From the NCBI RefSeq assembly GCF_026210795.1, contig NC_089434.1:1798001-1862000 (forward strand): DNA of 64,000 nt, read 5' to 3'. The notes beneath the pieces are model-generated. The model made no database searches. It saw only the letters and a list, made by a program, of their open reading frames with translations, and was not told the DNA's origin. Source of the stretch: Rhizophagus irregularis. Its lineage: Eukaryota. The first letter of the stretch is position 1. Each line of letters opens with the position of its first letter. Below are positions 14,356-64,000 of this stretch, in pieces. Both the position numbers and the translations under genes were made by a program.

Positions 14356-14451
14356 AATGCAATTTAATTAAAAAAGTTTAAAAAGAAAATTTTTATTGGT
14401 ATTAAAAAAAAAAAATAAGTAAATGAACTGGGAAAGGAATTTTTGACGTGT

Positions 14452-17173
14452 TTATTTTATTTATTTATTTTTATTTTATTACTAAAAGAGTAGTACTCCC
14501 AAAACTATTACAAAATAAGAGTAAAACATCATTTACATGATGGTACAAATAGGCTAGTATAGAATTTTGGAAATTAATCCCCTACGGGACCCCACCCTTC
14601 GAACAATACTATTCAAACTACTAGAACTACGCTAATACTTCGAATGGGGAAAAGAAAAAAATAAAACCTAAAGACCCATCCGTAACGAGAGAACCTAAAA
14701 CAATTCAAACTAAAAAATAAGAATCCGTATTTTTCTTTCGACCAAGGTCGCCACTTGTAAATACTGTAAGAAGTGGAATGTTTCACTCTATTTTAAGTTG
14801 TTTTTTGTTAAAATATATATATATAAAAAAAATTAGATGAAATAAAATGTAGATTAAACTACTTGATAAAGGTATTTAACTCCTCATGTATCAAAATTAC
14901 ATATGAATAAAAAATTTTTCTGAATTAGTTGACGGTCCAGCTACTGTGGAGTTGTCTAATGTATCAGTAGAAGGACGAGGACGTTTGTTAGGATGTGATA
15001 AATTGTTGGAAATTGTATTAGTAAATCGAGTTGAATCGTGTTTGTTGGGTCGATGTTCTAAAATTTTTGTATCATCTGATAAGTCGTCTTGACGAGTAAG
15101 AGAATTGAATGTAAATTGTTTCAAAAATTTAGATAAATTTTTGTTAAGATTACGCTGTTTTCTTTCATTATTGATATGATCGGGGTGATTCTTGTCTTTA
15201 ATATGACGGCGTATATATTCATCATAGCAATTTGTTACAGTTGTAAGTATCATTGGACCTCGTAAACGTGATCCTAAATGTTTGCGACTTGTACCATAAT
15301 AAGCGGCCCTTGCATTATTATTTTGTTCACGTAAATTCCATTCGGCTAGAGCTTCAGCCTGGAGTTGGCGATCCTGTTCATCGAAACGTTGTTGTCTTCT
15401 GATTCTCTTTTCTAAATTGTACATATAAGTGAACCACTGTCTAGATCCAGGTGGAATATAAGTATCACCTTCTTCAGTCAAAATGTAAATAGGTTCTTTT
15501 GGGATAATATCTCGGTATTTTAACGGGATAAACATGTTAGGAATAGGATTATATTCTTCAACCCAAGGAATCAAATTATCGAATGATAGTAAAGTAGAAG
15601 AAATGTGAATACGAGCCCCAAGATGATTCACATTCGCCTTGATTGTAGTAGCGTGTTGGGAATTGTTTATATAAAAAGGTATAAAAAATTGGTAGTTGTC
15701 AGCATTCGGAGCGATGTTGTCCTTTTTGTATAATAAATGTTTGATTGGTTTGTTGATATACTGTGATTTAACGAATAGGAATCGGTATTTTCTTCCCATA
15801 GCCAAATAATCTGAGTGTTGAGCGGTACGTCCAGGAGGTAATTTCATCTTATTGAATATGCGACGACAAGCGCGATTAAAACGAATTTCTTGTTTTTTCC
15901 GTGTACGAAGATTAGGACTTGGAATCTTTTCAAAGTTGGATAGTCTTTTTCTGTACATGTGTTTGTTGTGAAATTTCAGGACCGATACATTGTCCTGAGC
16001 ATGGTAAGAAGAAATAAAGGATATACCCATTCTTTTAGAGAAAATATGTTTTGGTCGTCCAGCTAACCATCTAAAATACAACAGGTTAGCATGTGAAGTT
16101 TTACTATTAGTAAAATCAGGCGTGATATCTTTATCATTGTGTTCAGGTTTGGGTTTAATATTATGAAAAATCTGTTCTTTAAAAAATTGTGGTTGGTGAT
16201 TGACGCAAGCACGTCTATCACGTGACATAATAAAAGGAGCAGGAATTCTACATTTGCCTAACATAGGGAAGGTGTCGGGAGTTGATTGATTATGAGAACA
16301 GGGTATAAAAATTCCAAAATAAAATCTATATTTTTTGTAACTAAAATTAAAAAAAGTTCGAGTGTGAATATTTCTGGACGTTACCAACGAACCACGTGAT
16401 TCTATAATATTGATTCGGTCCAATAATCTATTACGAATCATATTGAAATATTTTTGTTGAATACGTCGGGGTATAACTCTTTGTGAAGAAAAAAAGTGTG
16501 TGAGCATAACACTAATTTGGTATTTGTTATTTGGAAATGAACTCGTGTTTTTATAATTAATAGGTTTTGTGTTCATCTGATAATCATTTGTGTGTATTGT
16601 TAATTGAATATTATTGGTGTTCGAATTATGATCAGCAAGCTCAAAAAAGAAACTTCTTGATCAACGTATTTCATATATCTTGTTGTAACCTGATCGATTT
16701 GGTTTGGTCACATGGAATTTTTTCAGGGATACCTGCAAAGGAGTTTTCGAAAAATTTTTTTCCAAAGAAAAATTTTTGGAAGACATTTTAAGGGATATAT
16801 AATAATAAAAGATAGTAAAAATTTTATATTTTGAATATTAAAATATAAAGGTTCAAGTATATAATGTAGCAACAGTAAAAAATAAAAAAAACTCTTATAT
16901 AACTACTGGGGTGTATATTACGTAAAGGGGGTATATATGACGTTGTTTCTTGACTGTATAATTCTATTAAAAGTAAAACTTTTACCATATGTATATACTA
17001 AAAGATATGGAGTGACTTGTGTATATTCGCGAGTTGTTGTAAGTTAAAAGAAAATGTAATAGCTAGCGAAAATAAAATAAAAAAAACGTCTAGTTCGTAA
17101 TAATAAAAGTAATTCTACTGCGCCATTTTAACAAAAATTGGGTAGAGCGGAAAGAGTTTTTTTTTTCCTCACC
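14452..17173 (-). mobile_element. Retroposed non-LTR-type element lacking reverse transcriptase (2.72 kb)
   Basis: 14-bp direct repeat AATTTTTGACGTGT at 14438-14451 and 17174-17187. (TAAAA/TAAA)n A-rich tail at 14452-14480 on the minus strand. The insert is absent from the matching upstream regions of kinase copies 1 and 3. Confidence 0.85.
14897..16786 (-). CDS. Basic intronless protein of unknown function carried by the retroposed element (559 aa open; 629 codons if one in-frame TGA is ignored)
   Basis: ORF 16576-14897. An upstream ATG at 16786 is in frame, interrupted only by a TGA at 16663-16661. No RT or endonuclease motifs were recognised. Confidence 0.7.
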
Positions 17174-18692: not shown

Positions 18693-20978
18693 TTAAAATC
18701 CATCTAAAAAAAATGCATATAAATAAACAACAATTAGTAATTAAAATATTATTATTTATACAAATATTAAGAAACTAACCATCAGGAATCTCAAATTCAT
18801 CTTGTTCTTCCGAATGAAGGTTTGGATTATTATGTATTTCATCATCGTCTATAAAAATATAAAAAAAGTACTTATTTAATTAAAATATTGCAAATTAAAA
18901 ATTTATAACAAATATTCTACTTACCAATAGCTGGTCCTTTCACTTGTTGTATTGTTTCTTTTTTATAATTATTTTGAATTTCTACATTTTTTAAATAAAA
19001 CAAATAAATTTTATTAAATAAATATTGAAATTAAAATTTGGAATCATTTTGCTTACCATCGTTTGAATTTATTTGTAGCTTATTAAATACTTCAAATAAC
19101 CCTTTACTATCATCATCTAAAATTGAAATAAATTTGCATTATTATTATCTAAAAAAAATTTTATATAAACAAATTACCTTTAAAAATACTATTCATTTTT
19201 GATGTTTTATTAATCTTTTGATCGTTTGAATTATTAAAATCTTCGACTAAAAAACGAAAATTTGGTTAATAAATATTTCATCAAATGAAATTTTAATAAA
19301 TACTTACTATTATCAGGAATATTAAAGTCATATGTTTTACTATGAAATGCTATTTAAAATGGTTAAAAAATTATTATAATAGTTAATAATGAAAATAGCA
19401 ATAAAAAATATTAACCTTCTTGTCCTTCTATAAACATTTAAATTAAAAAAAGAAATTAGTAATAATTTCATATCTTAATCAATAAAAAAAAAATCTTATA
19501 AGCAATACCTTCTGTTGCATTCTTTGGTTCAGGTAAATTTTCAAATTGATGAATTTTGCTTGTAAATAATCTGATGCTTGTATAATTTGTGCTAGTTTTT
19601 ATTTCAAAATTATTCACTGCTTTTGACTGGAAAAATTCATTTGGCATATTTTGATATGATAGATGAATTTCTCTTATTTTTTCCTGAAGAGATTCAATAT
19701 CAGGTCTTTTTAATGGATCAGAATCCCAACATTGTACCATTAAATTTTTATATTCTAAAGGAATATGTGACATAATTTCTGGTCTCATACCATTAATTAT
19801 ATCCATTGCAAGATTATAATCATCATGCTTATAATTAATAAATGGTGGTTGTCCAGATGAAATTTCCCACATAAGTATTGCAACACTATAAATATCAGAT
19901 TTAAAAGTACATCCTTTTCCATTAATAACTTCTGGTGCTATATAGGGAAGATTTCCATATATACATTTTGATGATTTATCAGCAGGTCCACAAAATCCAA
20001 GATCACTAATAAACCATCTATCATTAAATTGTGAATATAATATATTTCCAGAGTGCAAATCTCTATGAATTGCCTTCTCTTCATGAATAAAATATAGTGC
20101 ATTAGTAATTTCAAAAGTAATTTTAATTCTTTCTTTCCATGTAAGTCGTTCATCATTTTGTTGTAAATATTTTCTTAAATCCATATCCATTTTCAACATT
20201 ACAAGCAAGTAATTTCCACTTGATATATCTTGTGTTAAACCATAACATCGGACAATTTCTGACCATTTATTATTTATAGTTAAATGTGATTTAGCCTGTA
20301 AATATAAAAACTTTTATTGTAAAACAAAAATTGGCTAATTTTATAAATACAATTTAGAATATATACCTCTTCAAACCAACTTTGATTTGCACTTTCAACA
20401 TTTTCTAATTTTTTGAGTACTACCCTTATTATTAGGTTTTGTATTCCAGGTCTTTTAACTCTTTTTAATTGTTGATTTTTAGAATCCCATTCATCATAAT
20501 ATCCATCGATCCAACCTGCAGTATAAATTTCGGAAAATCCACCTTTTGTAAGATATTTAATATTTTTTAAATTATTATATGGAATCCATTCAACTATAGT
20601 ATTTGGCATAATTGATTCTATTTGACATTTCTGTATTAAATTATCAATATCATCATTTCCAGATGTCCAATGTGAAAATTTTCCTTTTAAATAATTTCGA
20701 ATACAATATTCACAATATAATGTAGCTAAACATTCTTGATTGCAATTTTCACAAATTCTTTTTGTTCCCGTATTTTCAAGAATTTTATTTCGGTCGTAAG
20801 CTTTAGTTATATCTTTTATTGCTTCAGTTTTTTCATCATCTGTAAGAAGTTTATCAGCAAGAATTGTTTGTTTTTTAAATTCATGTCGTTTGTGAATATC
20901 AGTGTGAATATTATAATCAATTAACGAATATGCTCTATGAGTTGTTGCATTAACTAATTCATATCGAATGGTAGACAT
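18693..20978 (-). CDS. Tyrosine-kinase-like protein kinase, copy 3 (complete, multi-exon)
   Basis: ATG at 20978; exon 1 ends at 20367 and exon 2 starts at 20295. Same 3' microexon series, TAA at 18695-18693. Confidence 0.9.
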
Positions 20979-22299
20979 AATGCAATTTAATTACAAACTT
21001 TAAAAAGAAAAATTTTTTTATTAGTATATAAAAAAAATAAGTATATGAACTGGAAAGGAATTTTTGACAACGAAATTTAAGTTTCAAAAAATTCCTGAAT
21101 AGTGTAACTATAAATTCGAATTTTTAGTATGATCAGAATAATGTCATGTGACAATTACACAATTAAAGTTCAAAGAACGAAATAAACTATTTTTAGATAT
21201 GCTTGTTGATCATCCCTATAAATAATTATTTTTTTTTTAAAAAAAAACTAAAAATAGAAGATAACGTGAATACTAAAGTAGGAAGTTACCGGATTGTGAT
21301 GAAAAATTTAAAAATAACATTGACAGTAGTAGTGATTATTGCATTAGTGATTATACATGGAAAAATTTCTTGTAAAAAAGTTCTAAAATTAGTAAATAAA
21401 ATAAAAATAAATTATATTATATGAAGCAGAATAAATGAATACTTTCATAATAATTGCATAATAAAACTTTCATATGTTTACGTTTCATTAATAATGATTT
21501 ATTAATAATTGTTTATTAACTCACTAATAGATTACTTCGTTTATTTTTGCATGCCGGACTCCGTAAAATTAAATTTAAACGTTTGTCAGCAACTGTTTGA
21601 CCAATCCAATTTACTTTCAAAATATTTATTTATAAAATAAAAATTAATAATTTTAACTTTATTTACGAAATATTTTAATAACTTTACAATGTAATAAGTA
21701 TTTTTATATATATTAAATTATCAATATTTTTAAAATACTTTTTACTTTTTAATTGAAACCAGGTAAATAGTATAGCTATTTGCTTGGAATTAGTTTTTTT
21801 CGAAAATAAATGGTTCCTGTACAGTAAATAACATAAATTTAATTTTCGCAAAATTTGATCACAAAATAATAATTATATTGGGTAAAAAAATTCATTTTAA
21901 CCCAGATTTGAAAATAACAAAAATAGTGAAAAAATAATACTTTTTATATTCAGTAAGTTATGAAATGATCTGTTATACTTATAGTCGGTTAAAAAATTTG
22001 ATCGCTTCTTATAAAATATGTAAAGAATATAACGTATACAAGAAATATTATATTAATTATAAAAATAATATTATGCGCATCGTACGTATCTTATTTGAAT
22101 GAGATAAAGTCTAATATTTTACATAAAATAGTATTTATATAAAAATTATCAATCGTAAAAAAGATTTTATTTCGATTAAATTAAAAATCATATAAACCAT
22201 TTTTTATATTATTTTTCCACAGATACACGTTGTTTTATAATGTGATCTAGACTAATTTTATTTGGTAAATTTCTGTTGTTATAATTATTGTAAAATTAT

Positions 22300-27365: not shown

Positions 27366-28684
27366 CAGATGGTGATCAAAAGTATACGGACATTTTAATT
27401 TGCCAAAATTATGCCGATCATCACGTGATGACGTAATATAAACAATACGTCATTTAACGCCTTATATCATAATAAAAACCTCCCCAATGTTTTTTTTTTA
27501 GTAAACATTCACCAAATATGAAGCCACTCACCCCAAAAACCCGATATGCGATTATTTATGGTTATAATTGTGGACAATCGGGCCGTTTAATTGCAGAACA
27601 CTTGGGGTGTAGTAAAACTGCTGTTTATGATGTACTTAAACATTTTCGTGAAACTGGCTCTTTCACACCAAAAAAAAAATCAGGTCGCCCTCCACTCTTT
27701 GACTCACCAGCACGACAAGAACTCAAAGCTTTTGTTAAAGAAAATGGTGAAAATCGTCGACTTTGTTCAAAAAAGCTTGCAACTGTTTGGACAGCTCGTA
27801 AAAAGCAACCTATTTCTGTGTGTACCATACGCCGAAACCTCAAAAAGGTTGGACTTAGTGCCTGTATTCCCCGTCATAAACCTGCAATGACAGAAGCACA
27901 TCGTCAGGCTCGTCTTGAATGGGCTCTTGCACACAGAGATTGGACAACAAGAAAATGGAGAAGAGTGCTTTTTTCAGATGAAAGCACTTTTACACAATTT
28001 CAGAAAGGTCGTCAGGGAAGGGTTTGGCGTGAACCAGGAGAAGAATTGAATCCTGATTGTATTGCAGTTACCGTTAAACACAGTCCTAGCAGAATGTTTT
28101 GGGGTTGTTTCTCCTGGCGTGGGCTTGGACCAATTGTTCCGTTAAAAGGCTCAGTTACAGGTCAAACTCATGCTAAAATTATTCAAAACTATGTTGTACC
28201 TACTTTGGATGAGCATTTTCCACAGGGTAATGGAATTTTTCAAGAAGACAATGCTCCACCACATCGTTCAAAAGTCGCTATGGCCACCCGTGAAGATGCC
28301 AAAATTGTGGTGCTTCAATGGCCAGCACAAAGCCCCGATTTGAACCCCATAGAGAACATGTGGGCAGAAATGAAAGCAATGGTGCATCGACGTGACCCAC
28401 CACCATCTAATATCAAAGTACTTGAGAAATATGTTAAAGATGCGTGGGATGATATTCCTCCAGAATATTATAAAAAATTAATTGATAGCATGCCACAGAG
28501 AATTGAGGCAGTTATTGCTGCAAATGGATATAGTATTAATTATTAATATATAATTTTTTTTTACATAAAATTAATAAAGGACAATCAGATTAATATATTT
28601 ACTTAATAAATTTTATTTTTATTATATTATTTTATATGAAATTTTTATTTTAAAAAATGTCCGCATACTTTTGATCACCATCTG
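27366..28684 (+). mobile_element. Tc1/mariner DNA transposon, apparently intact
   Basis: 31-bp TIR CAGATGGTGATCAAAAGTAT(A/G)CGGACATTTT with one mismatch; TA on both sides (27364-65 and 28685-86). Confidence 0.95.
27518..28546 (+). CDS. Tc1 transposase (HTH + DD34E)
   Basis: Motifs KSGRPP, VLFSDES, FQEDNAPPH, WPAQSPDLNPIENMW; 34 residues between the second D and the E. Uninterrupted 342-aa ORF. Confidence 0.95.
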   Translation: MKPLTPKTRYAIIYGYNCGQSGRLIAEHLGCSKTAVYDVLKHFRETGSFTPKKKSGRPPLFDSPARQELKAFVKENGENRRLCSKKLATVWTARKKQPISVCTIRRNLKKVGLSACIPRHKPAMTEAHRQARLEWALAHRDWTTRKWRRVLFSDESTFTQFQKGRQGRVWREPGEELNPDCIAVTVKHSPSRMFWGCFSWRGLGPIVPLKGSVTGQTHAKIIQNYVVPTLDEHFPQGNGIFQEDNAPPHRSKVAMATREDAKIVVLQWPAQSPDLNPIENMWAEMKAMVHRRDPPPSNIKVLEKYVKDAWDDIPPEYYKKLIDSMPQRIEAVIAANGYSINY

Positions 28685-30347
28685 TATTTAATCGAATACA
28701 AGAAGTTAAAACTCGTCCACGACAAAGGTGGAGTTGAGGTTAAAATAATTCGTTATTTTGCAGTGTATTTAGCAGAGTATTTAGCAATTTTCAATGATTT
28801 TTTATTAGCTTTTTCATTATTAGGAAAAAAAATAAGAAAAGTAATTTAAAGAAATTAAAATTCAAGATGTTTATAGGACTTAAATTCGCATTTTTTCATT
28901 TTGTATAGAGATTGTAATTTAATTTAGATACTGTAACAAATATTAACGAATTTAAAAAATATATATTTTTACATTTAAAACATTTAAAGGAATTGTACAA
29001 TCAATAACTTATCTCCTAAATAAATGTTAACACTTGTTATTGACATTATTCTAAAAGTCACTTCTTACGGCAGTTGAAATAGAGCGATAAAACTAAAGAT
29101 GAAAGCAAAACTATGAGTTATTAAACTTCTTATCCACGGTGTTAATTTCATTGTTACCGATGAATTTATGAAATTCACTTAGAAAAATGTCTCGTATAAT
29201 TTATATTATTTTAGAATTTAGTAAATATGCGAATAAATAAATAAATACGTAAAGCAAGTTTAAATATAAAAGGATGTCAAATCCAAGTACTACATTTTTT
29301 TAAATAAATTCCTTTTTTTTATTTAGATTAGTCTGAGAGGCAAAAGTACCTTATTGTAAAATATATGATACGGGTCAATTTAGCACCGCGTGGTAGTTCA
29401 AGAACGATACATTTGCGTCTGAGAGTTAAAGTAGTCTATTATCAACTTGCGTATTATTTATTTATACAGTATATTAACAATTCGCGAGATTTACTATAAA
29501 TTTATTTTATTATTACAATATAGTGAGTGAGCTTTATACTATAATTATAAACACTGATTTGTCATCCAAAATTTTTTTTGGCCTCATTTTATATTTTTAT
29601 ATGCAAAGAAAAAAATTCTTTTTTTATTTTCCATTATTGTACAGTTACTACAGTACAAATGATGTCTTCGCCTTCTTTCTGTTTCTTTCATGTTAATTTG
29701 TACTTTCCATCATTAGTATCTTGCTTCTATGCCAAAATATTTAATAGTTAGCCAATACTTAAAGATATTTATTTTCGCTAGTATCTCAAATAAGCAAAAT
29801 GATAAAGGTAAATGCATTAATTACATTATTTTATGCATTTACTCTGATAAAGTACTTCTATAATATTAAACGGACTATTCCGTAATACTTATGGTAAATT
29901 CTCAAAATTCCTTGAGAATCAAGAAATATTTTCCGTACCGTCAACAAAAAGTTCAAACCTCTGATAACGCATAATTCAGAATAAATAAAATATGTACGTT
30001 CAAAATTTCATCATAGTATATCTTACTATTTATTATAAAGAAAAGTCAAAATGGAAAAATCAAGTTTTTAACTATTGCATGAGTTTCACTTTATTAATAA
30101 ATAAAATAAATTAATTAATGACAAAGTAACATAATAAAATTATAATATTTATTTATAGCTATGATTAACAATTAAACATGTTTAAAAATATTTTATTTTG
30201 TCTATTTTTAAAATTTTTTGTGTAATTGTAATTGTCATATGACATTCAGATCATACTAAAATTTGAATCTATAGTTACACCATTAATTTCGTTTTTCAAT
30301 TTATTTTTAACAATAAAAAAATTTTTTCTTTTTAATTAAATTACATT

Positions 30348-32648
30348 ATGTCTACTATTCGATATGAATTAGTTTATGCAACAACTAGTAGATCATATTC
30401 GTTAGTTGATTATAATATTTACACTGACATACACAAACAGTATGAATTTCGAAAACAATTTATTCTTGCTGATAAACTTCTTACAGATGATGAAAAAACT
30501 TTTGCAATAAAATATATAACTAAATCTTACGACAGAAATAAAATTCTTCAAAATACGGGAACAAAAAGAATTTGTGAAAATTGCAATAAAAAATGTTTAG
30601 CTACATCATATTGTGAATATTGTATTCGAAATTATTTAAAAGGAAAATTTTCACATTGGACATCTGGAAATGATGATATTGATAATTTAATACAGAAATG
30701 TCAAATAGAATCAATTATGCCAAATACTATAGTTGAATGGATTCCATATAGTAATTTACAAAATATTAAATATCTTACAAAAGGTGGATTTTCCGAAATT
30801 TATACTGCAGATTGGATTGGTGGAGGATATGATGAATGGGATTCTAAAAAACAACAATTAAGAAGATTTGGAACTACAGAAATAGTACTTAAAAAATTAG
30901 AAAATATTGAAAGTGCAAATCAAAGTTGGTTTGAAGAGGTTTGTATTCTAAATTGTTTATTATATTAAATAATTTTGTATTGACAATAAAATTTTTAAAT
31001 TCTTATAGGCTAAATCACATTTAACTATAAATAATAAATGGGCAGAAATTGTCCGATGTTACGGTTTAACACAAGATACATCAAATGGAAATTACATGCT
31101 TGTAATGAAGAAAATGGATATGGATTTAAGAAAATATTTACAACAAAATAATGAACGACTCACATGGAAAGAAAGAATTAGAATTACTTTTGAAATAACT
31201 ATGGCACTATATTTTATTCATTTTGAGAAGGCAATTCATAGAGATTTGCACTCCGGAAATATACTATTTTCACAATATAGTGATAGATGGTTTATTAGTG
31301 ATCTTGGATTTTGTGGACCTGCTGATAAATCATCAAAAAGTATATATGGAAATCTTCCTTACATAGCACCTGAAGTTATTAATGGAAAAGGATATACTTT
31401 TAAATCTGATATTTATAGTGTTGCAATACTTATGTGGGAAATTTCATCTGGATATTCACCATTTATTGATTATAATCATGATGATTATAATCTTGCAATG
31501 GATATAATTAATGGTATGAGACCGGAAATTATGTCATATATTCCTTTAGAATATAAAAATTTAATGGTACAATGTTGGGATGCTGATCCATTAAAAAGAC
31601 CTGATGTTCTAACTCTTTGTAATAAAATAAGAGAAATTCATCTATCATATCAGAATATGCCAGATGAACTTTTCCAGTCAAAAGGAGTAAATAATTTTGA
31701 AATAAAAACTAGTACAAATTATATAAGCAGCAGATTATTTACGAGCAAAGTTCATCAATTTGAAAATTTACCCGAACCAAAAAATGCAACAGAAGGTATT
31801 ATTTATTAAGTTTTTTGTTTATTGATTAAGATATGATGACGTTACTAATTTTTTTTTTTTGAATTTAAATGATTGTACTCGTTATAGAAGAACAAGAAGG
31901 TTAGCTTTTTTATTGTTATTTTATTAACTATTATAATAATTTATAACCTATTTTTCTTATTTTTTAAATAGCATTTCATAGTAAAACATATGATTTTAAT
32001 ATTCCTGATAATAGTAAGTATTTATTGAGATTTTCATTTGATGAAATATTTATTAATCAAATTTTCGTTTTTTAGTTGAAGATTTTAATAATTCAAACGA
32101 TCAGAAGATTAATAAAACATCAAAAATAAATAGTATTTTTAAAGGTAATTTATTTATATATTCAAATTTTTAAAATAATGATACAAATTTATCTCAATTT
32201 TAGGTGATAGTAAAAGGTTATCTGAAGAATTTAAAAGTTTACAAATAAGTTCAAATAATGGTAAGTAATATTATTCTAAATTTTAATCGTTTAATTAAGC
32301 AATATTTATTATAATCTTATTTATTTATTTAAAAATTCAGACATTCAAAATGATTATAAAAAAGAAACAATGCAACAAATGAGAGGATCAGTTAATGGTA
32401 AGTAAAGTAATTTGCTATAAATTTTCATTTTATTTTTGCAATGTTTAAATTAAAAATTTTGTCCTTTTATAGACGACGACGAAATACATAATAATCCAAA
32501 CCTTCATTCAGAAGATCAAGACGAATTTGAGATTCCCGATGGTTAGTTTCTTAATATTAATATTGTAATAAATAATAATTTAATTGCTAATTTCTATAAT
32601 TTCTATTATTTAAATTTATTTATATATATATTTTTAGATGGATTTTAA
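30348..32648 (+). CDS. Tyrosine-kinase-like protein kinase, copy 4 (complete, inverted relative to copies 1-3)
   Basis: Exons 30348-30938, 31009-31795, 31888-31899, 31972-32013, 32076-32144, three more short exons, and 32638-32648. Ends NNPNLHSEDQDEFEIPDDGF*. Confidence 0.92.
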
Positions 32649-52687: not shown

Positions 52688-53787
52688 AATTAGTTTCAAC
52701 TTTTTTTTTCCTTTTAAATAATTGTTAATCAAATAAAATTTGTTTAAGTTTTGTAATTTATTAGTATAATTTTCTGATTTACTTGAATAAAATGAATAAA
52801 ATAAGAAATTTTGAATTTAAATAAATAAAATATACTTTTAATATATAATGCTTTTAGATTTACATTATCTATTCTTCAATCTTATATTTGATTCGCCATA
52901 ATGAGACGTGGTATTTTTATAACTTTAACTTCAATAGATGAAAAAGTTATTGGCATTTTACTGTTTGAAGCTTTTTGAGAATAACTCCCTATTCTATCAA
53001 TACTAGAAACATGAATTTACTGCAATTTGATGCATTTCATTATGGTGATTCTAATGAGCTTTACTTTATCTTTTTATGATCATGATAAGTTATTATGATT
53101 TAACTTCTTTGAAAAAGGTAAATGTATATATATCATATAATATATTATACTGTATCAAAACTGTTGAAACAATTTCAGCAGGTTTTAGCAGTTTTAGCAG
53201 TTTCAGCATTTCAGATGATTTTGCAAACCTATTTTCAGCAGTTTTATATATACCATTCTGCTAAAACTCTTTAATTTTGGTAAGCAATTTTACTTTATCA
53301 CCACTATACATGCCACCCAAATTATTTTGGGTTGCCATAATTATAAGTAAAATCCTATAAATTAAATGAATTATGGAATTCCAAATTATAATCATGACAT
53401 CCCAAAATAATTTGGGCAACATATATAATCATCACTATTATAACTATTATTATCATCTTTACTATCATTTTTACTACCACTATTTTCATTACTTTTATCA
53501 TTTTATTATTGTTTCTTTCTTTTTTTTTACTTTTTTTATCAATTGACTTTTTTTCATCAGATTTTTCTAACTTTTTGAATCTTATTATTATTTGATTTAT
53601 AATTACTTGATTTTAGTATTTGGTTTATAAAAGCAAATCTGATAAATTATAGTTTTATAACAAAATGTTTTAAGAAATATTGTATCTTAAAATTTATTTT
53701 TAAGATTTCTTACAAAACAGAAGGAATGAGAAAATCATATATCTTTATTTGAATTTTCCAGTACATCTAAACAACAAGTTCATTTTA

Positions 53788-54228
53788 AGTAGTATGAAAA
53801 TGCCGGTTCTGGCTCACCCCCACCATATAATCTAAAATACTACCACTTTATATAATCTAATTACCACCATCATATAACTTAATTACCATCATATAATCCA
53901 CCTACCACTTTTACTATAATTTAACTACCACTTTATATAATCTAGTTACCACCATCATATAATTTTAATTACCACCATATAATCCACCTACCACTTTTCA
54001 TATAATCTAGTTACCATCATATAGTTTTATTACCACCATACAACTCTATTACCACCATACAATCTGAAAAAATTAACCGAACAAGAAATAGGATTTCAAA
54101 GCCAACGGAGCCAAAAAAGATAAGGAAATATTAACCCATCCAGGAAACCAGCCATGGGGTCAATAGAGCGGAATAGCAAGGCAAGTAATTACCCTTATAC
54201 CGAGAAAAAATGTAATTGAATAAAAGGT
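53788..54228 (+). repeat. Left TIR (441 bp) with internal TACCAC(C)ATATAAT-type tandem units
   Basis: Reverse complement of 63108-63549 with one substitution and one 1-nt indel by manual comparison. Confidence 0.95.
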
Positions 54229-54250
54229 TTACATATAAAAGACTTACAAG

Positions 54251-54920
54251 ATGTCACAATACAGACCATCACTAAGACGTATACTAGGTCAGTTTGAACT
54301 CAATATAGAAGAATGGGTAAAGGAAATAATGTGGTATTTAGATATAGTATATTTAAAAGCTTTAGATTCCGAATTTAGCAAAGAAAGTATGTTAGTATCT
54401 GGATTAGAAGAGCTAGTAGAAATATTTGATGAGATGTTAGAAGGTGATGATATATGGATACATCCATCACTTTTATCACGAATAAGATATTCTATTCTAC
54501 CAGATGAGATGGCAATATACGAAAGATTTTTAGATATCATTAAGAACTTCTCAGAGGATAAAGAATTAGCATATGCATTATTAGACTTAGTAGAAATATT
54601 ATCGAAAAAGCCTCTGGACATTCAACATTATAGATTACAATATACAAAGAATATTCACGAATCCTAATGATGAATATAGAAATGAATTCAGCATCTACCA
54701 TATTAAAGGAGATGAAGATATGAACGAAGACACAGATGAAGACATAGATGAAGTAGAGCAGAATGAATTCAATGAATACTATTAGAATCTTGCACCGACC
54801 ACCGAGAGTCAGCTGGATAGACTAAAAAATGAGTTGGCTATAACTCTATGTGACGAATGTCTTATGCCAACAAGCCAAGTTGGGAATGTGATTGCTGGAT
54901 TTTACAAATAGAGGTTTCTA
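54251..54920 (+). CDS. Acidic protein of unknown function (element gene; probably frameshifted near 54660)
   Basis: 138-aa ORF directly after the TIR promoter-like motif; an acidic continuation with a CDEC motif follows in another frame. Confidence 0.5.
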
Positions 54921-54940
54921 GTTCCCAGTGAAACCATTTT

Positions 54941-55734
54941 TTACCTCTCACAATCTGGAATAGGTACATCACAAATAAAATCCCCAAAATCATTCGGATT
55001 AGAAAATAACTTCTGTAAGAACTTATAAATCATATCAGCAGCCAATTCAGTCTTAGTGCCAAATATATTAACCTTACCAGATTTAGGCCAGATATGTACC
55101 CGAATCTTTGATGTGAAGACTATAACAATTTTAGAATGAATATCACCCGCATCATTCTTAATATACTTTATCGGAAAGGGGAGAATCTCACGAATACCAT
55201 CTACAGATTCTAAAGCATATGCTAAGGTAGAAAGATGAATAAACTTATTACTCCCGATATTAATCACAAATTTGTAATTACACAGGAGAGCCTTATTTCC
55301 ACCCACAAGTTCTACAGAAGAAAACTCAGGTAGGGAACATTCAGAAAGGTAACGTAAGAAGATAGCAACAGGATCAAAAGATCCGAAAACTTGTATACTA
55401 CCAGATCTAGGAAAATAACGAATGGTATGTACAGAATCAGCTAAAATGATAACAAACTCAATGCAAGCATTAAAAGTGCTACCATCCCCAGTACGTCACC
55501 GTCTATTTAATGGATTGTCAGGTGTACTTCTTCTGCATCGTCTCTCACCTTTTGGTTTAGATAAGTACTGTTCATAACCCTCAAAAGCTTTATGAATAAA
55601 GTTGCTATTAATGGCAATAACATCCTTAAGTAGGTTCAAGCTTATGTCCAAGCACGGTGTAATCAGCCCCCTTCAACATTGATCTTAAATTCAGTAACAG
55701 TAAGAGATGGAGTAAGTTCACTAAAAGTAAGCAT
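54941..55734 (-). pseudogene. Viral-type TATA-binding-protein-like gene (asfarvirus B263R-like), disrupted
   Basis: Reconstructed VIAINSNFIHKAFEGYEQY..TGDGSTFNACIEF..YFPRSGSIQVFG..CNYKFVIN..IRVHIWPKSGKVNIFGTKTELAADMIYKFLQKLF..ICDVPIPD. Two frameshifts at about 55630-55670 and a TGA near 55497. Confidence 0.75.
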
Positions 55735-55838
55735 GTCTGGTTTTTTCTATTGATAGAAAAGAAATGTTCAAATTATTTTATCCTAAGAAAAAATCTAATT
55801 AAATAAAACTTCTTCATCAATATCTCATATGAGATACC

Positions 55839-56351
55839 ATGACAAACAATAGCTTACCTTTCGAACTTTTAGAAAAGATATTCAAAACTTCATATGAAGG
55901 TACTTACTCCCGTTGGTATTATCTTTGCAATTATGCATTAGTGTGTCGAAAATGGGCTGTAGTAGCAAACTCTCTCCTATGGGGTGAAACAGACCTTTAT
56001 AACCGCTATAATATTAAGGAGTTCCAAATGTACAAACATCTCACAAAACCAGGGACAGTATGTGGAAAATATATCAGAAAGCTTAATATGGATGAGGTAA
56101 AATTATGGCCCATTTGTATTGTAAAAATGCTACAAGCTTGTCCCAATATCCAGGAACTTAGCATAATAGATTATCAATACTATGGTGGAAAAGGTGACGT
56201 TAGAGATTTGCTAAGTGAAATTCTGCATATATTACCAAAACTTCGAATGATAGATATCAGATATAGTCGATATTTTAAAAATAAAAATGCCATTGAAAAA
56301 CTCATAGAAACCCGTAAAGACCTAGAAATCAGAGTAACATGGCAAATGTAA
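55839..56351 (+). CDS. F-box protein with a short LRR-like C-terminus
   Basis: LPFELLEKIF..LVCRKW F-box pattern; ACPNIQELSI and LPKLRMIDI repeats. Confidence 0.75.
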   Translation: MTNNSLPFELLEKIFKTSYEGTYSRWYYLCNYALVCRKWAVVANSLLWGETDLYNRYNIKEFQMYKHLTKPGTVCGKYIRKLNMDEVKLWPICIVKMLQACPNIQELSIIDYQYYGGKGDVRDLLSEILHILPKLRMIDIRYSRYFKNKNAIEKLIETRKDLEIRVTWQM

Positions 56352-56367
56352 TATTTGTAAAGGCTAA

Positions 56368-56535
56368 TCACTGCCAAAAAATTTGGGCACTGCCCTGTTC
56401 ACCGCCCGTCACTGCCAAAAAAAATTTGGGCACTACCCCTGTTACTGCCCGTCACTGCCGAAAAAATTTGGGCACTACCCCTGTTACTGCCCGTCACTGC
56501 TGAAAAATTTGGGCACGCCCGTCACGCCCGCCACC
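56368..56535. repeat. GC-rich tandem repeat of about 40 bp (about 4 units) between convergent genes
   Basis: Unit TCACTGCC(A)nTTTGGGCACTACCCCTGTTACTGCCCG. Confidence 0.9.
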
Positions 56536-56639
56536 GCCCATCATCGCTGCAGAAGTTTGGGAAACACATGGATTTTTCCTAGCAAGATGACGCTTTAACT
56601 TAGAGGGAAAGTCAAAACTTGCTCCACATAGATGACAGG

Positions 56640-58803
56640 TTAATCTTCCTCGAGAGTGTGAATTTTTTTTAAGTCGATAGTATCCATCTGCAAGGAAGTC
56701 ACGTTAGTTTTCCGTTTATGTAGAGAAATTGGAATGGTAATTTTTTTACGTGATGATAGAGGGATGGTCAGTTGCCGATTTTGGAAATCTAGAATGACAT
56801 TATCACGATCAATCCAAGGTACACCCAGTAATAAAAAGTCCTTATCACTCTTAACAACCATGAAGTCATCTTCGATTTTTTTAGAGTTCTTCCCATCATA
56901 CACAAGAATACCAAGACCATATACTGTCCCAATAGTATCAGATTTTGTCGCAACACCACTAAGGTCAGGAGCATTACTTCTATCAACGTCAAGATTTAGG
57001 CGCTTTTACAATATTGTTAGATATCAGAGAACTATCAGAACCAGTATCGAAAATTGTCGTAGGAATAACCAAAGATTTTTCACTCTCAGGCGACTTCTTA
57101 CTTTGGTCTTAATATGACTACATCACTAGCAGACTTGCGGTTAACAATTCCAATACCTGCTATAGAAGACCATAAGTCATTATTACATATAACATCATCA
57201 TTTTTACGGATTAAATTTGCAGCCATACTATTAGTTACAACCGAAATCATAGGATGAAGGATAGATGATGAAAAAGGTCCTTAACATTATCCCAAACTTT
57301 TTCACGTGTTTTTATTGAGGGTTCTCCCTTTAAGCTGACTGAGTACTGGTTCTTTATAATTAATGAATTCAGCATTCAGAGCATTGTAAGCAGATATAAC
57401 AGTCTCTTTTGGTACAGCATTAACGAAGGATTGAACCAGAAGCTTTAAGAGTTGTATAAAAACCTCAAAGATAATACGCTGCCTTTCAAGTTGTGATTTT
57501 TTCTTATCAGTAGGCTTTTTATCTATACGTTTCCTTTCTGTAGGCTTTTTTTTAATCATAGCAGGCATGTCCAGAGTCTGATGAATCGCTATCAGAGGAT
57601 TCAGAGGAGTCAGAGGCGTCAGAAGAGTTAGAGGAATCAGAGGAGTCATGTGCATAATTTGTTTTCCTCTTTCCCTTCTTAGATTTTGGACAGGAACTCT
57701 TAGTATGACCAGATTTTCCACAACTTGAGCATTTCTTTGATTTCTTTGGTTTGCGTGTACCTGAACTTATACCAAATACCTGATTACCACGGTAAATATG
57801 GTCAGATGGTAAATTTTTATTAAGTTCTGTATCAATAAATATTTCAAGATCACTAAGGGTTACTTTACTTATATCGATATCTCTTGGAAGACCTAATTTA
57901 TATGCTAAAGCAAGTAATCTCTGAAATGATGTATCATTTTGAGGACTTGAAAATGGACTAGAAGATGGTACTGGTACTGCAGATGATCTAGCCGTAGTCA
58001 TAGGAATTTTAGAATTTATAAGATTCTCAATATCCGCTAAAGTTGGACCCTCGATATGTAACTATAGGAGTAGGTGGCATATCTGTCCTGTATTTCTCAA
58101 CTTCTTCCAATTTATTCAGAATAGATGCAACTGAATTTTCTAAACCAATACGTCGCGCATCCAACTTATTTTCACTGGAAAGACCATTTAAGAACTGTTG
58201 CCGTACTAATTCATTCTGATTTACCTCTGGAAGAGTTGGATATGCAAGTCTAACCATTCTTCGTAATTTAGAATAGAATCGGCTTACAGTATCACTACCC
58301 TGAACAATAGCATTAAATGCAAGTTTAGACTTTTCAGATGTTATAGTAGGGAAGTAATGCTTAAAACGATATATTAATTGTCCAATACGTATTCCAGGAG
58401 CCACAATTGTACCTCCATTATTAGCATTAGGATTATTAACAGCTATATCAGTAGGACGACCCTCGACTACTGACCAATCTTCATCCCATACAGTATGATC
58501 AGGTATAAAATTAGCACCAGTAATAGTATTATCTGCAGCTGCTTGTCCATGTAATACACCAGCCCTTCCACGAAATTGATTCGCCGCTACAGCCTGTATA
58601 GCGCCATTATTCAAAGCATTAAAAGCAGCAAGATTGGCCACACCAGTATTATCCAGAAGATTTACACATTCCCAATTTTTTCCTTTGATATGTGTTTCAT
58701 ACCAATCTCTAGCATCATCTTCAAGTAAAGTCTCAAAGATCCCATGAATCCTAACACGAGTTCTAGCATTAGCAGCAGGATCAAGTCCAGCAGACTCACA
58801 CCA
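56640..58803 (-). pseudogene. Ty3/gypsy-like Gag + CCHC zinc knuckle + retropepsin protease, 5'-truncated and frameshifted
   Basis: LEDDARDWY; QGSDTVSRFYSKL..RQQFLNGL (capsid-like); CSSCGKSGHTKSSC; IFDTGSDSSLIS (DTG at 57048-57040); FLLLGVPW. No RT, integrase or LTR is visible. Confidence 0.8.
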
Positions 58804-58805
58804 AT

Positions 58806-61800
58806 GCGGAGGCCAATAAATTCTGCTATAACTGCTCCATTACATTCATCCTTAAATTTTCCTGGGATTTTCATATTTATGTCAGTCTTATCACCTAATG
58901 CTTTTCGTACAGGATGATCTTTAGGATAATCACTGAAGTCAAATTGGTCTGCCATATCTATGAGGTCTGCATTAATATCCTCAGTTTGGATTTGTACAAG
59001 AAGTGAGTCTGTGTCTGTATAACATAACTGGATTTTTTCACCATATCGTACTTTAAGAGTATCATAGTAGAATTGATACATACAGAGCTTCGAGAGGTCA
59101 AGCACACTCATACCCACATATGTTGGACGGTTAAGCATTACCTCCACTTTTCGTCGGTGAATTGCAACAAGATTTTCTGAGAATATTTTACGACCCTTGA
59201 ATGCAGGATCTGAGGTAAGCTTTTTATATTTCTTGGGATGGGTTTGGGGTTGTACTACTGAGACACGTACACGTTTCCTGAGATTTTCCATAGTTTTACC
59301 AAATACACTATTATTCATGAGTTTATAGAAGTCCTTCTCAAAATCATTTTTAGCCTTAGCACGTTCGGCGGTGTTAAATTCTATATATGGTTTCATCCAT
59401 GGAGCCTGCTCGAATTTTATAGCTTCATAGACCTTCTTAATTACTAAGCCCTGGCTAACATAATACTGGAGATTTCTATAATGAACTACATATTCATCCT
59501 TATCAAATAGGTTAGGGATGAGCTTATCCGTGGGTGTATATCGTTGTCCTGAACGTGCTATTATTTCCTGCTGCTTTTTACTAAGCCATTCCTTCTTAAC
59601 CTTCATTCGTTCTGGTGCAAGGGGGTAATCTGTGTGTTGTGAATGGAGGGCTTGAGGGTACTCCAGTTTGACTTTAAGGATATATCCCTCAGAAGAATCA
59701 TCTGGTATTTCATTACTTTCTATTTGCCTTTGAATGTTAGATAACTCGTTTTCCTCCTTTATCCAGTGGAAGTTACCTGTAGGTAAGTATTGCAACATGG
59801 CCCATCCATATAGGTTATTTGCGTCTAAGTATAGAATAGATGACTTGGGCTTATCTGCGGTCCATTTACCTTCTCCCATACCTGGATTATTTGCACGAGC
59901 ACATCGTTTACTTACCATAGAGATTCCACCACGTAATCCTTGTTCTACCATCATGTACATGTCCTGGTCAGTTATAAGATCCAATCTTTGCCCTGTCATT
60001 AAGAATAGTGCATCCCATGCGAAGCCTGGTGTTGAATAGTACCAAGAGAGGATCTAACCCATATTTTTTCAAGGCCATTTCTCGGAAATTCTGAAATATA
60101 TCGGCTAGTAGGAGGACGTCAGTTTTGAGATAAATGTCATGATAATCTTGCATTGTTTTACATCCTGCTTTTTCCCATACATACTGTGCATATTCGTATT
60201 CTTTATCACTAATGTGGGTTTCATTAAGTTTGCTATAAAATGCTCCTTTAGGTGGTAAACTAGTTTTCTCGAACTTTTTCCAGTCATCCATGTATTCATA
60301 CGGGTAGACACCTTTCTTAAGATAAATCTCGAGTAATTCAGGTGGTATTTGACTTCGTGTTATTTTAAAGTTTTCGGGATGTGCAAAGCATCTACCTGCA
60401 TCAATTCGCCATAAGTGTTGTGGATTACTACATTCTTGTGCTCTACATTTTTCTGCGCCTAGGTTGGATGCTAATTTGTCGAGACTTGATTTCATGAATT
60501 GTAAGCTGTCTATAAATCGGAGGAACCTAACTTGAATGCCATATACTTTTCCATGTTATAAGGGATAGGATCAATATCATCCTCACATTCCATTGCACCA
60601 ATTCCTTGCATAATTATATGTCCATCATATCCTGATAAATTGTGAAAGATTACTGGGATATGCATTTCACGAGGTTTTATGGATAAGTCAAGATTACATC
60701 TTCTATGTGCTGCACCTCGATACCTTCCTGTAATATGGCAGTGGTCTCTTACTTTATTTCCATCTAAGGGGTTACGACATATCCAGCAGTTTATTGCATT
60801 ATCATAACTTGCTTGCTCTTGGGTTGTTAACGGCATCATTTCCATTGGGTTTCTGAATTCATTACGGATTGCTTCAGCCTCATTTAGCATTTCGATTACA
60901 AATTTTTGTGCTGCATTTTCTCCTGTAAATATCTTCTGTGATTCACTTACACCATCATATCTTACCTTAATATACGAGTATGAGCAGGGGATTTGCTCTT
61001 GTACTTTCTTGGTTTTCTTATCTTTGTCTTCATCTGTGGGTGGTATGTCCATTACTAGGGCTTCAAAGTCTGCAACAAAGTAATATGGGACTTGCATGCG
61101 GCGTTTCCAGTTCTTGAATTCATATATATCATTTCCTTTCTTTACTGATGGCATTCGGTCTGCTTGTGGGGTTTTCTTTAATCCTCGACATATTGCTACA
61201 TGTTTGTCGTAGGTTTCTTTGTTGATGTGTAAAGTGGGAGATACACCATCGGCAGACTAATATTGCATGTTCATTTTTTGTACGTTTATTTACTAAACGG
61301 CTCATATTCTTAATCCAGCAATAGTGCTGCTTTTCCCCGTTACTGATAAGTACTAAATCTATTATTTTACGGCCCTCTGCATCATCCCTATCGGTAACAT
61401 ATATTGGACATAGGCGGTGGTCACGCCATTCACAGATGCAGAGGGCAATAGTTGAGTTCTGTCGCTCAAATCTTCTTAGAATTACCTCATCAGCATGTAC
61501 TCGAAATTCGATACCTTCAAAGTTTAACTCATTTACATACTCCTTATACTTGGAAATTCTTTCTGCATTCTTTTCTACTGGATGTAATGCTGCTAGGATT
61601 GCCCACTGGAAGCATTTGTCATCATCATTAGCTGGATTTACTACTCCCTTTTTCGTGGCAAGATCTTTTGGGAGTGGTATATGTCCTGCTCCTGTGGGTG
61701 GTTGGAATTGCGAGATTTCTATAAATATTTTTTCTACACGATAGAATTCCCAACCTGATCCGTAATTTACATAGTCTTCTACTTTCTGCATGATTCTTGC

Positions 61801-62388
61801 TAATGCAAAGTTAAATGTACCATTAATATCTGTTGATGGTAGGATTGGCATATTGCGAGTTTTAAATGGTATGTTATATCTGTAGATATACTCTACTCCA
61901 TCATCTTCACTAAAGTTACCATCTCCGAATAATCCCTCAAGGTAAGAATCTAAACGTCTTATTGTAGCAAATATTCCAATTCTTACTTTTATTGATCCCA
62001 ATCGATTTCTTTCATCCCGAAGAATATTCTGGATTGTTTGACTGTGTGCTGTAAGAAATGAAGCATAGTCATGCTCTCCAGGTGTTCCTATAGCAATATC
62101 AGCTGTAAAGTTTGAGTCTGTTAACTCCTTTCCTATACGTACCTGATCACGACGTTCAAAGACTACCTCATAATGTGGGTCTGGGTCAATTTGCATCATG
62201 CGGGTTATCTCTTCATTGGTTACCGCCGCTTGTGCTTCACGGATTTGGCGGATCTCATCCTCATATTCCTGCAATTTTGCATTTGAGCGGGGATATAGGA
62301 TGGATTTGACAGGTACCTGTTTGAGTTCAGCTAAAACTGATCGGACGACTTGTCTGTGTTGGGCACTTCTTGCTTGATGTGTTGACAT
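58806..62388 (-). pseudogene. polB: Protein-primed family B DNA polymerase (Polinton type), with three frameshifts and a truncated C-terminus
   Basis: GSGW..DKCFQWAILAALHP; VADFEA; VRDHCHITGRYRGAAHRRCNL; FHNLSGYD; KGVYPYEY; YLDANNLYGWAM; KLMNNSVFGKTMEN; YTDTDSL; GKFKDE..EFIGLR, then an abrupt junction. Confidence 0.93.
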
Positions 62389-62410
62389 CTTGTATACTTT
62401 TTAGATCCCT

Positions 62411-62433
62411 CTTTTATTCAATTACATTTTTTC
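62411..62433 (-). promoter_or_regulatory. Element-specific upstream motif GAAAAAATGTAATTGAATAAAAG before polB
   Basis: Exact copies lie at the inner end of both TIRs and a degenerate copy lies at about 55787-55808. Each is 22-40 nt before an ATG. Confidence 0.7.
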
Positions 62434-62525
62434 TGAAAATAAAATTAATTATTCGCCTACCCTATAAGGATAAAAAAAGATGAAGACGGGTTAATATCGC
62501 CTTCTAAAATTTATCTGGATATAAT

Positions 62526-63070
62526 CTATTCCTCGTCATCTGAGTCATCATCATCCGAGTCACCGAACGCATCCTCATCAGGAGTATCCCCATCCTTAAA
62601 TAACTCAAAATTGCGCATCATTCGGATGTATTCTCCCTTATTAGTTTCTTCCGATATAAAACTACAATGGAGAATAGCTTGTTCTATGACTACCATTTCT
62701 TCGAATCTGGTATACTTTTCTTGACTAATTTTAGTTGATTCATCGGAAAGTTTATCAAAATTTATACCACCATCTGCACAATCTCGCCAGAAAGCCCTTT
62801 CAGCTTTCTTACATATATTGCCACTGTTCGTATGTCTATCGACGCATGCGCGCAGCAAAATCTTTCGGCTCTCCAGATTGGATTAACTTCTAGAAGATGC
62901 GGTCCAAAATTGTTACTTGGAATGTATTCCAGGATATGGCCTACAAGTTTGGGGATTGTTAATACTGCGTGCGGGGTTTGACAGCTTTTTAGGATTTCCC
63001 TATTGATAGCCATAAGATCGGAGACTGTGCAGCCGAAGATTGATGCCAACTTTTCCGCGGTATATGCCAT
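62526..63070 (-). CDS. F-box-like protein with an acidic tail (two ORFs joined by a probable frameshift near 62860)
   Basis: VLTIPKLVGHILEYI..LLEVNPIW resembles an F-box; the overlapping downstream ORF ends in a D/E tract. Confidence 0.5.
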
Positions 63071-63107
63071 GTTATGTGCTATTTATCTGTATAGTTACTT
63101 GGTACCT

Positions 63108-63549
63108 ACCTTTTATTCAATTACATTTTTTCTCGGTATAAGGGTAATTGCTTGCCTTGCTATTCCGCTCTATTGACCCCATGGCTGGTTTCCTGGATGG
63201 GTTAATATTTCCTTATCTTTTTTGGCTCCGTTGGCTTTGAAATCCTATTTCTTGTTCGGTTAATTTTTTCAGATTGTATGGTGGTAATAGAGTTGTATGG
63301 TGGTAATAAAACTATATGATGGTAAGCTAGATTATATGAAAAGTGGTAGGTGGATTATATGGTGGTAATTAAAATTATATGATGGTGGTAACTAGATTAT
63401 ATAAAGTGGTAGTTAAATTATAGTAAAAGTGGTAGGTGGATTATATGATGGTAATTAAGTTATATGATGGTGGTAATTAGATTATATAAAGTGGTAGTAT
63501 TTTAGATTATATGGTGGGGGTGAGCCAGAACCGGCATTTTCATACTACT
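63108..63549 (-). repeat. Right TIR (442 bp)
   Basis: Reverse complement of 53788-54228. Confidence 0.95.
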
Positions 63550-64000
63550 TTTTATCCATGCATTGACTAGTACCCTTTATTTCAGTTGTAATCATAAAAA
63601 AGAAATAAAATCATTTAATATGGATTGCAATCTGTAGTGCCTAGTACACATGTTGAAATGTACTATACCATTAATTTTTATTTAAAATAAATTAATGTAA
63701 TTAATGTATAATTAGTTTATATATTTTTTTTTTTATTTTTTAAATTTTAAAGTTTATTAATTATAACACTTAAAACCATACAATATAGGTGTTACATATC
63801 ACGAAAATACAGACGACAGGTCAACTACCCCACAGTGCAATGAAGATGCATTAATAAATCTGATACAAATACACTTACGAACTAAAAAAAAATGAAATGC
63901 AGGAAAAAACAAAACAAAAAAAAAGAATCCTACATACAAAAATGAAAACAAAAAAACAAAATGAAAAAATAAGGAAACAGTCAGTAATGAAGCCATCCTA

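Follow-up and report, generated by a model that had tools for sequence, protein, structure and literature searches.

A 64,000-nucleotide stretch of the genome of Rhizophagus irregularis (RefSeq assembly GCF_026210795.1, contig NC_089434.1, positions 1,798,001 to 1,862,000 of the forward strand; hereafter the window) contains, between its positions 53788 and 63549, a mobile element that raises an unusual question: what kind of element carries the protein-primed DNA polymerase B (pPolB) of Polintons together with a Gag-protease of retrotransposon type and a TATA-box-binding protein (TBP) of giant-virus type, and how might it be packaged and transcribed? An earlier note had read it as a Polinton-like satellite linked to asfarvirus-like giant viruses. 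Our answer is that the window holds an internally deleted and decayed copy of a multicopy Rhizophagus Polinton family, one with pPolB, an rve integrase, Gag-protease, an asfarvirus-type TBP and an F-box protein and with no jelly-roll capsid module, which would exist as linear, protein-primed DNA, be packed by Gag and be transcribed by an asfar-like polymerase. About the identity of the family we have little doubt, and towards the whole reading, life cycle included, we lean with modest confidence.

Boundaries of the element

The element is 9,762 bp long with 36.6% GC and lies in DNA of about 20–30% GC; its CpG observed/expected ratio is 0.62 and that of the flank 1.03, as expected from methylation-driven decay. 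The terminal features listed in the earlier note all stand. The terminal inverted repeats (TIRs) of 441 and 442 bp, at 53788..54228 (plus strand) and 63108..63549 (minus strand), are identical at 440 of 441 aligned letters with one gap, and both ends of the element read AGTAGT; the left TIR has internal subrepeats of 19–22 bp and, at its inner end (about 54205–54226), a promoter-like motif. A 5-bp target-site duplication (TSD), TTTTA, flanks the element on both sides (53783..53787 and 63550..63554, plus strand), and two random host 5-mers would match by chance with a probability of 0.003; no empty insertion site was seen among the joints shown in the public-run contigs. Polinton TSDs range from 5 to 8 bp in the accessible part of one source (bioRxiv 2023.08.22.554363), and the long TIRs and 5-bp TSD found here fit what is expected of a Polinton/Maverick. 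Named homologs of the element's proteins come from R. irregularis, at 90–100% identity.

A deleted copy of a multicopy family

Nearly every gene of the window copy is broken. A Pfam scan of 19 window open reading frames (ORFs) recovered pPolB (DNA_pol_B_2), an endonuclease-VII-like zinc insert, Retrotrans_gag, a CCHC knuckle, a C2H2 finger and one F-box. The pPolB (58807..62388, minus strand), which the earlier note had recognised correctly, has an OTU-like Cys/His region as well as the zinc insert and lies here in four pieces, with two frameshifts, a break near 60045 and a deleted 3' end, whereas long intact models are found elsewhere in the family. Its upstream region (62411..62433, minus strand) carries a promoter-like motif identical to that of the TIRs.

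The most informative position is 58807, where contigs from all four public runs break off on both sides, their loose ends continuing pPolB on one side and Gag on the other. The overhangs amount to 1,606 and 452 bases in one run, so at least about 2.0 kb is missing from the window, and the corresponding interval of the soil contig L008 is 2,377 bases long, encoding the last part of pPolB, then an rve integrase (Pfam E 3e-10, above the cut-off), then the coiled-coil start of Gag. The window copy is thus internally deleted at this junction (58807..58807), some 2.0–2.4 kb having gone with the end of pPolB, the whole integrase and the coiled-coil start, and its lack of an integrase is peculiar to this copy: the integrase that defines a Polinton/Maverick is present at the level of the family.

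The gene order of L008 is pPolB, integrase, Gag, protease, zinc finger, F-box, TBP and ORF1, and a second locus, L005, matches it from the integrase on. Genes for pPolB, integrase and TBP are grouped in five R. irregularis copies among the matches listed (15 per cluster), as gene tags jg2311/2312/2315, jg3733/3734/3737 and jg28804/28803/28800 and accessions GET50566/50569/50570 and CAB4408607/12/16, and there are further pairs. Because the deletion overhangs, L008 and these gene numbers agree, the full-length family is about 11.8–12.1 kb in size and ordered TIR, ORF1, TBP, F-box, zinc finger, protease, Gag, integrase, pPolB, ORF-R, TIR. Intact ORFs in the metagenome relatives agree with genes that would be free of introns.

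Contigs of the element reach tens of times the depth of the flank in all four runs, which fits many copies but does not count them. Compared over 1,141 bases with the main contig of run X5, the window shows 18 letter differences and 12 gap letters (about 2.6%). Since the integrase has been lost, the TIRs are 99.8% identical and the interior is some 2.6% away from other copies, the simplest reading is that the window copy is defective and was, as seems likely, recently moved in trans. A second family, about 85% identical and at lower depth, occurs in the same runs, with contigs over window positions 54914–56825.

A Gag-protease in place of the jelly-roll module

The earlier note found none of the canonical Polinton genes recognisable, which is right except for the integrase, present in relatives and deleted here. 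Neither the double jelly-roll (DJR) major capsid protein (MCP) nor penton, A32 ATPase or adenoviral protease had a Pfam match among 19 window and seven L008 ORFs, which together span the gene order; the same library detected DJR capsid and A32 ATPase in three of three control pPolB loci. Conversely, homologs of Gag, protease, TBP, F-box and ORF1 were found in 0 of 28 IMG/VR pPolB loci, and integrase in 18 of these. No helicase match occurred among the window and L008 ORFs.

What the family has instead is a Gag-protease, in which both the Gag and the retropepsin components proposed by the earlier note are confirmed. Gag (57546..58806, minus strand) comprises a capsid region, a CCHC knuckle and a Ser/Asp-rich tail, its 5' part being lost in the deletion. 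It is followed on the same strand by a spacer and a retropepsin with a DTG motif (56640..57545), interrupted by several frameshifts in the window copy. At the end of the protease lies a slippery run of T-T-A8 (56663..56672, minus strand), kept in relatives, and behind it, in the -1 frame of the protease, a C2H2 zinc finger (56494..56663, minus strand) with no Met before the finger. This layout of a T-T-A-rich slippery run and then a -1-frame finger is found in the window and in loci L004, L005, L008 and L011, and the Met-less -1 finger is also kept in two DNA runs.

Two further candidates were rejected. A conserved frameshift between Gag and protease was dropped, as in two DNA runs the main contigs read through both without a change of frame and the length of the A-run differs between L005 and L008. 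Run X17 lacks one letter at the slippery run; this was not accepted as evidence of slippage, because the loss leads to the third frame, the type of run is guessed and the contigs are in fragments.

These genes are under constraint. Pairwise dN/dS is 0.14–0.29 for TBP (four pairs), 0.27 for Gag (one pair), 0.09 for protease (two pairs), 0.25 for F-box, 0.33 for ORF1 and 0.39–0.42 for the zinc finger (three short pairs), and the order Gag-protease, F-box, TBP, ORF1 is kept in soil families at 65–78% nucleotide identity. Being syntenic and under purifying selection across diverged families, TBP and Gag-protease are not nested insertions. Both ways in which the earlier note thought its reading might fail, namely that these segments are insertions unique to this copy or that full-length relatives are standard Polintons with neither gene, can be set aside, L008 carrying both. 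Gag-protease, F-box, TBP, ORF1 and the zinc finger are accordingly working core genes rather than passengers.

An asfarvirus-type TBP

In the window copy the TBP gene (54941..55734, minus strand) is broken twice, near 55670 by a frameshift and near 55497 by a stop. The earlier note had called it viral in type, and Foldseek and hhalign together confirm the TBP fold and the asfarvirus type. An AlphaFold model built from an alignment of 36 homologs has a pLDDT of 84.7, and all 43 of its PDB matches at E <=0.001 are TBPs, cellular ones standing at about 1e-6 in the rows shown. The best named viral match is the B263R homolog of abalone asfa-like virus (E 1e-15, TM 0.71), which is also recovered by profile search. 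By hhalign the protein aligns with asfarvirus B263R from end to end (99%, E 5e-18, 29% identity), colinearly and with a basic insert that is missing from cellular TBPs. In the Atlas it has clusters of Nucleocytoviricota TBPs and of poxvirus intermediate factor 3 as neighbours; a PDB search by sequence gave no significant match, and among 20 unnamed TBP relatives only one cluster received an informative name. Family TBPs, about 260 residues long, group in a single deep clade (SH 99, FastTree), with mostly unnamed outgroups. The donor of the gene is asfar-like when judged by similarity rather than from a rooted tree.

At L015 (853–1974) a distant family TBP stands beside two different genes of no known function, one with the full upstream motif, and the gene slots adjoining TBP therefore vary.

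The promoter-like motif

The upstream motif that the earlier note saw as shared is present at four of the five window starts. Of 22 predicted starts in the window and five further loci, 14 have WTTGAA in the 60 bases upstream, against a mean of 3.1 in shuffles, of which 0 of 2000 reach 14. The distribution is uneven: 14 of 19 regulatory and replication genes have it, and none of three integrase and Gag starts. Controls gave 6 of 22 on the reverse strand, 12.5% in host windows and 0 of 4 at host kinase starts, and 28 other pPolB loci have it at 14 of 212 starts. Families that have diverged in the rest of their non-coding DNA retain it upstream of genes. In the region between the divergent TBP and F-box genes (55767..55810) the motif is on the minus strand and a one-letter variant on the plus strand. 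The longest form in the family resembles AAAATTGAAT, given as the core early motif of African swine fever virus (ASFV) in the available text of one study (PMC8906413), and the pacmanvirus transpoviron uses AAAATTGA according to the consulted portion of PMC11788076. Runs of T follow several stop codons in the element.

A proposed life cycle and rival explanations

A life cycle can be proposed from these parts. Early factors of a helper virus would read WTTGAA and switch on pPolB, TBP, F-box and the two terminal genes, after which the element's TBP, with helper TFIIB and polymerase, might turn on the motif-less, head-to-head Gag and integrase. Following the standard Polinton model, pPolB would copy the DNA from the TIR ends. 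Gag-protease would then be made, a minority of it extended through a -1 frameshift by the C2H2 finger (the frames are observed, the recoding is conjectural), and this finger could tether double-stranded DNA to the Gag shell. Finally the integrase would insert copies with a 5-bp duplication, as is evident from the TSD and the integrase gene. That Gag forms a particle is probable; that a helper virus transcribes the element, now or until recently, is somewhat less than an even proposition.

Asfar-like viruses are plausible helpers. Asfarvirus-related DNA in R. irregularis, mentioned in the earlier note, is indeed on record: the accessible text of PMC10640383 describes a large asfar-like insert in one of five strains, 4401, and relics of asfar-type polB, in 15–33 copies, in all five.

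Several points weigh against this life cycle. The particle, the free linear DNA and the transcript starts are predictions from sequence, and the full-length map is pieced together from overlapping sources rather than read from one end-to-end R. irregularis copy. [quoted passage not shown] The motif was picked after inspection, its starts are predicted and the relatives are not independent of one another. The exact 8-mer of the transpoviron, AAAATTGA, is absent from the element. Counts in the published 1.5-Mb Rhizophagus asfar-like insert show no enrichment: the 10-mer core is present 16 times (two permuted controls: 5 and 25) and AAAATTGAA 58 times (controls: 34 and 87), these counts being position-blind and the insert sequence decayed. 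Slippery sites are followed by no stimulatory RNA structure (z -1.6 to +2.1). On transcription by giant-virus machinery the motif evidence is divided, with enrichment upstream of family genes and none in the Rhizophagus insert, and dependence on a helper is conjectural.

The main rival, a serious contender to which we give about a third of our belief, is a helper-independent nuclear transposon of giant-virus-satellite origin, transcribed by host Pol II, with the TBP retooled to recruit host factors and Gag serving as particle or escort. High depth in every run and near-identical TIRs speak of recent spread where only one strain in five has the large insert, the insert shows no motif enrichment, and the single deep clade of TBPs means that capture is old. 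Against it stand a TBP still colinear with B263R down to the basic insert, an ASFV-like motif kept across families with diverged non-coding DNA, and the polB relics in all five strains.

Packaging by Gag, the other part of the favoured life cycle, has a rival of its own: Gag-protease might do a non-packaging job, as nucleic-acid chaperone, integrase escort or agent of interference with other elements, in a capsid-less element that never forms particles. We think this rather unlikely. The ORFs scanned hold no packaging ATPase or envelope gene, and the Gag capsid region has no significant PDB match by sequence, as such a role would allow; coiled coil, capsid region, CCHC knuckle and DTG protease are nevertheless all under purifying selection. 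Moreover, protein P0222, one of 120 integrase matches, combines protease, zinc finger and rve integrase in a single predicted reading frame on a 1.9-kb contig, as in a packaged polyprotein, hinting that the finger may once have been the head of a packaged integrase.

An integrase-less, transpoviron-like linear replicon, suggested by the window copy, is very improbable and is refuted for the family by the integrase that relatives have in the deleted part; of the earlier note's picture, the Polinton-like, protein-primed, integrating element with giant-virus-like TBP and motif survives, and the integrase-less replicon does not. Least credible is a standard Polinton in which the remnant of a long terminal repeat (LTR) retrotransposon and a viral gene are nested in this one copy: Gag and protease are of retrotransposon type, yet the shared order and purifying selection in soil families refute it, and L008 has no direct repeat of >=25 bp and the ORFs scanned no reverse transcriptase match.

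If the favoured reading of a Gag-packed, helper-transcribed Polinton is carried further, the family might represent an integrating double-stranded DNA satellite lineage of fungal asfar-like viruses that swapped the jelly-roll module for a Gag-protease shell, uses its own viral TBP for a two-step early/late cascade on the polymerase of the helper, adds a DNA-binding finger by -1 frameshift and spreads via mycorrhizal networks. This extended proposal is tentative, and as a whole we consider it unlikely.

Relation to known elements

The family is probably Polinton-1_GI, matched by size and gene profile and not by sequence. That element (P_Gi1.1) of Glomus intraradices, that is R. irregularis, is given as 11,954 bp, with neither MCP, penton, ATPase nor protease, and a second family, P_Gi1.2, as having the ATPase, in the part of PMC4028283 available. 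Host and missing-gene profile are the same, and our estimate of 11.8–12.1 kb brackets its length. The accessible text of PMC7805220 terms it MCP-less and mentions no Gag or TBP, and fungal ATPases are noted in that of bioRxiv 2026.06.19.733378. Starrett et al. 2021 (PMC8502044) name TBP and Matrix/Capsid/NC/Pro (retroviral Gag, retropepsin) in the legend to their Fig. [quoted passage not shown] The element or elements of that figure are likely to be this family. The family, gene labels included, is probably already on record; as a Polinton architecture it is an under-described variant. One family TBP carries the accession DAC81703.1, whose prefix we take to be that of a third-party annotation. 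In the literature searched, mostly available as listings, we found no discussion of the Gag-for-capsid swap, asfarvirus TBP, motif or frameshift.

With Polintons/Mavericks and adintoviruses whose pPolB bears OTU (Alpha, group 2) the family shares pPolB and rve integrase, long TIRs and a TSD; it differs in having Gag-retropepsin-zinc finger, TBP, F-box and ORF1 and in lacking jelly-roll capsids, ATPase and adenain. Ty3/Gypsy retrotransposons and caulimoviruses have a Gag capsid, CCHC knuckle and aspartic protease with a frameshift-controlled downstream product, and caulimoviruses hold double-stranded DNA in a Gag-type shell. Unlike these, the family has no reverse transcriptase, RNase H or LTRs (Pfam scan of the window and L008 ORFs; repeat check of L008), and its DNA is copied by pPolB. 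Virophages have jelly-roll capsids. With the transpovirons, virophages and Polinton-like viruses of giant viruses, especially the pacmanvirus transpoviron, the family would have in common linear DNA with TIRs, internal tandem repeats and an early motif, putatively of helper type, that precedes some genes; a transpoviron has about 7 kb and a helicase and neither polymerase nor integrase of its own, whereas the family has pPolB, integrase, Gag and TBP and resides in host chromosomes (PMC11788076, as far as available).

The nearest pPolBs outside the family belong to coral, aphid and IMG/VR loci that have DJR capsid and A32 ATPase as well. The FastTree trees contained neither linear-plasmid nor named Polinton references, and for this reason no origin is claimed for the family. 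Searching the Zhao PolB alignment by peptide gave no information; the portion inspected contains sequences unlike the element's pPolB. IMG/VR scans with a pPolB piece, the TBP alignment, Gag, a second-tier TBP and the element terminus gave no matches, nor did a GTDB scan.

Why the Rhizophagus Polinton has no detectable jelly-roll capsid finds a possible answer here, in a Gag module under purifying selection that occupies its place; a genome copied by pPolB in a shell of retroelement type would link virus lineages that are otherwise separate. The asfarvirus-type TBP and the promoter-like motif, in a family found widely in soil metagenomes, are independent hints of long asfar-like infection of mycorrhizal fungi, and together they offer a cheap reporter for tracing an active helper.

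Terminal genes, F-box gene and surroundings

ORF1 (54251..54920, plus strand; frameshifted, end approximate) encodes a conserved protein with helical, acidic and Cys-rich parts, predicted to fold entirely into helices. All its Foldseek matches have E >0.5 and the best VIA match (Z 6.9) is a helical bundle, which is not proof of a new fold. At the other end ORF-R (62526..63067, minus strand) is frameshifted and has no assigned function; lower depth and loose ends suggest that it occupies a variable slot.

Of two F-box-like genes reported in the earlier note one holds: the plus-strand gene at 55839..56351, with a Pfam match above the cut-off, encodes an F-box followed by a leucine-rich region. 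The second has no Pfam match, and a profile of five family F-box proteins matched one gene only among 502 window ORFs. In the L005/L008 family a small ORF of 82 residues (L008 6252–6497) separates F-box from TBP; the window element does not have it. Where the F-box and zinc-finger frames converge (56368..56516) there are tandem repeats of 42–43 bp, whose copy number differs among copies. Just left of the element, at 53305–53427, lies a short palindromic repeat with 42-bp arms (83%), likely similar to a miniature inverted-repeat transposable element, which has very high contig depth and many different flanks and has an 18-bp motif in common with the 42-bp tandem repeats of the element.

Elsewhere the window contains a 587-codon open frame at 14897–16660 with no Pfam match at E 0.01, four host protein-kinase genes that are paralogs within one expanded family (50–1560, 12849–14367, 19468–20990 and 30336–31809) and, at 27476–28546, an intact Tc1/mariner-type transposase (DDE_3, HTH_Tnp_Tc3_2).

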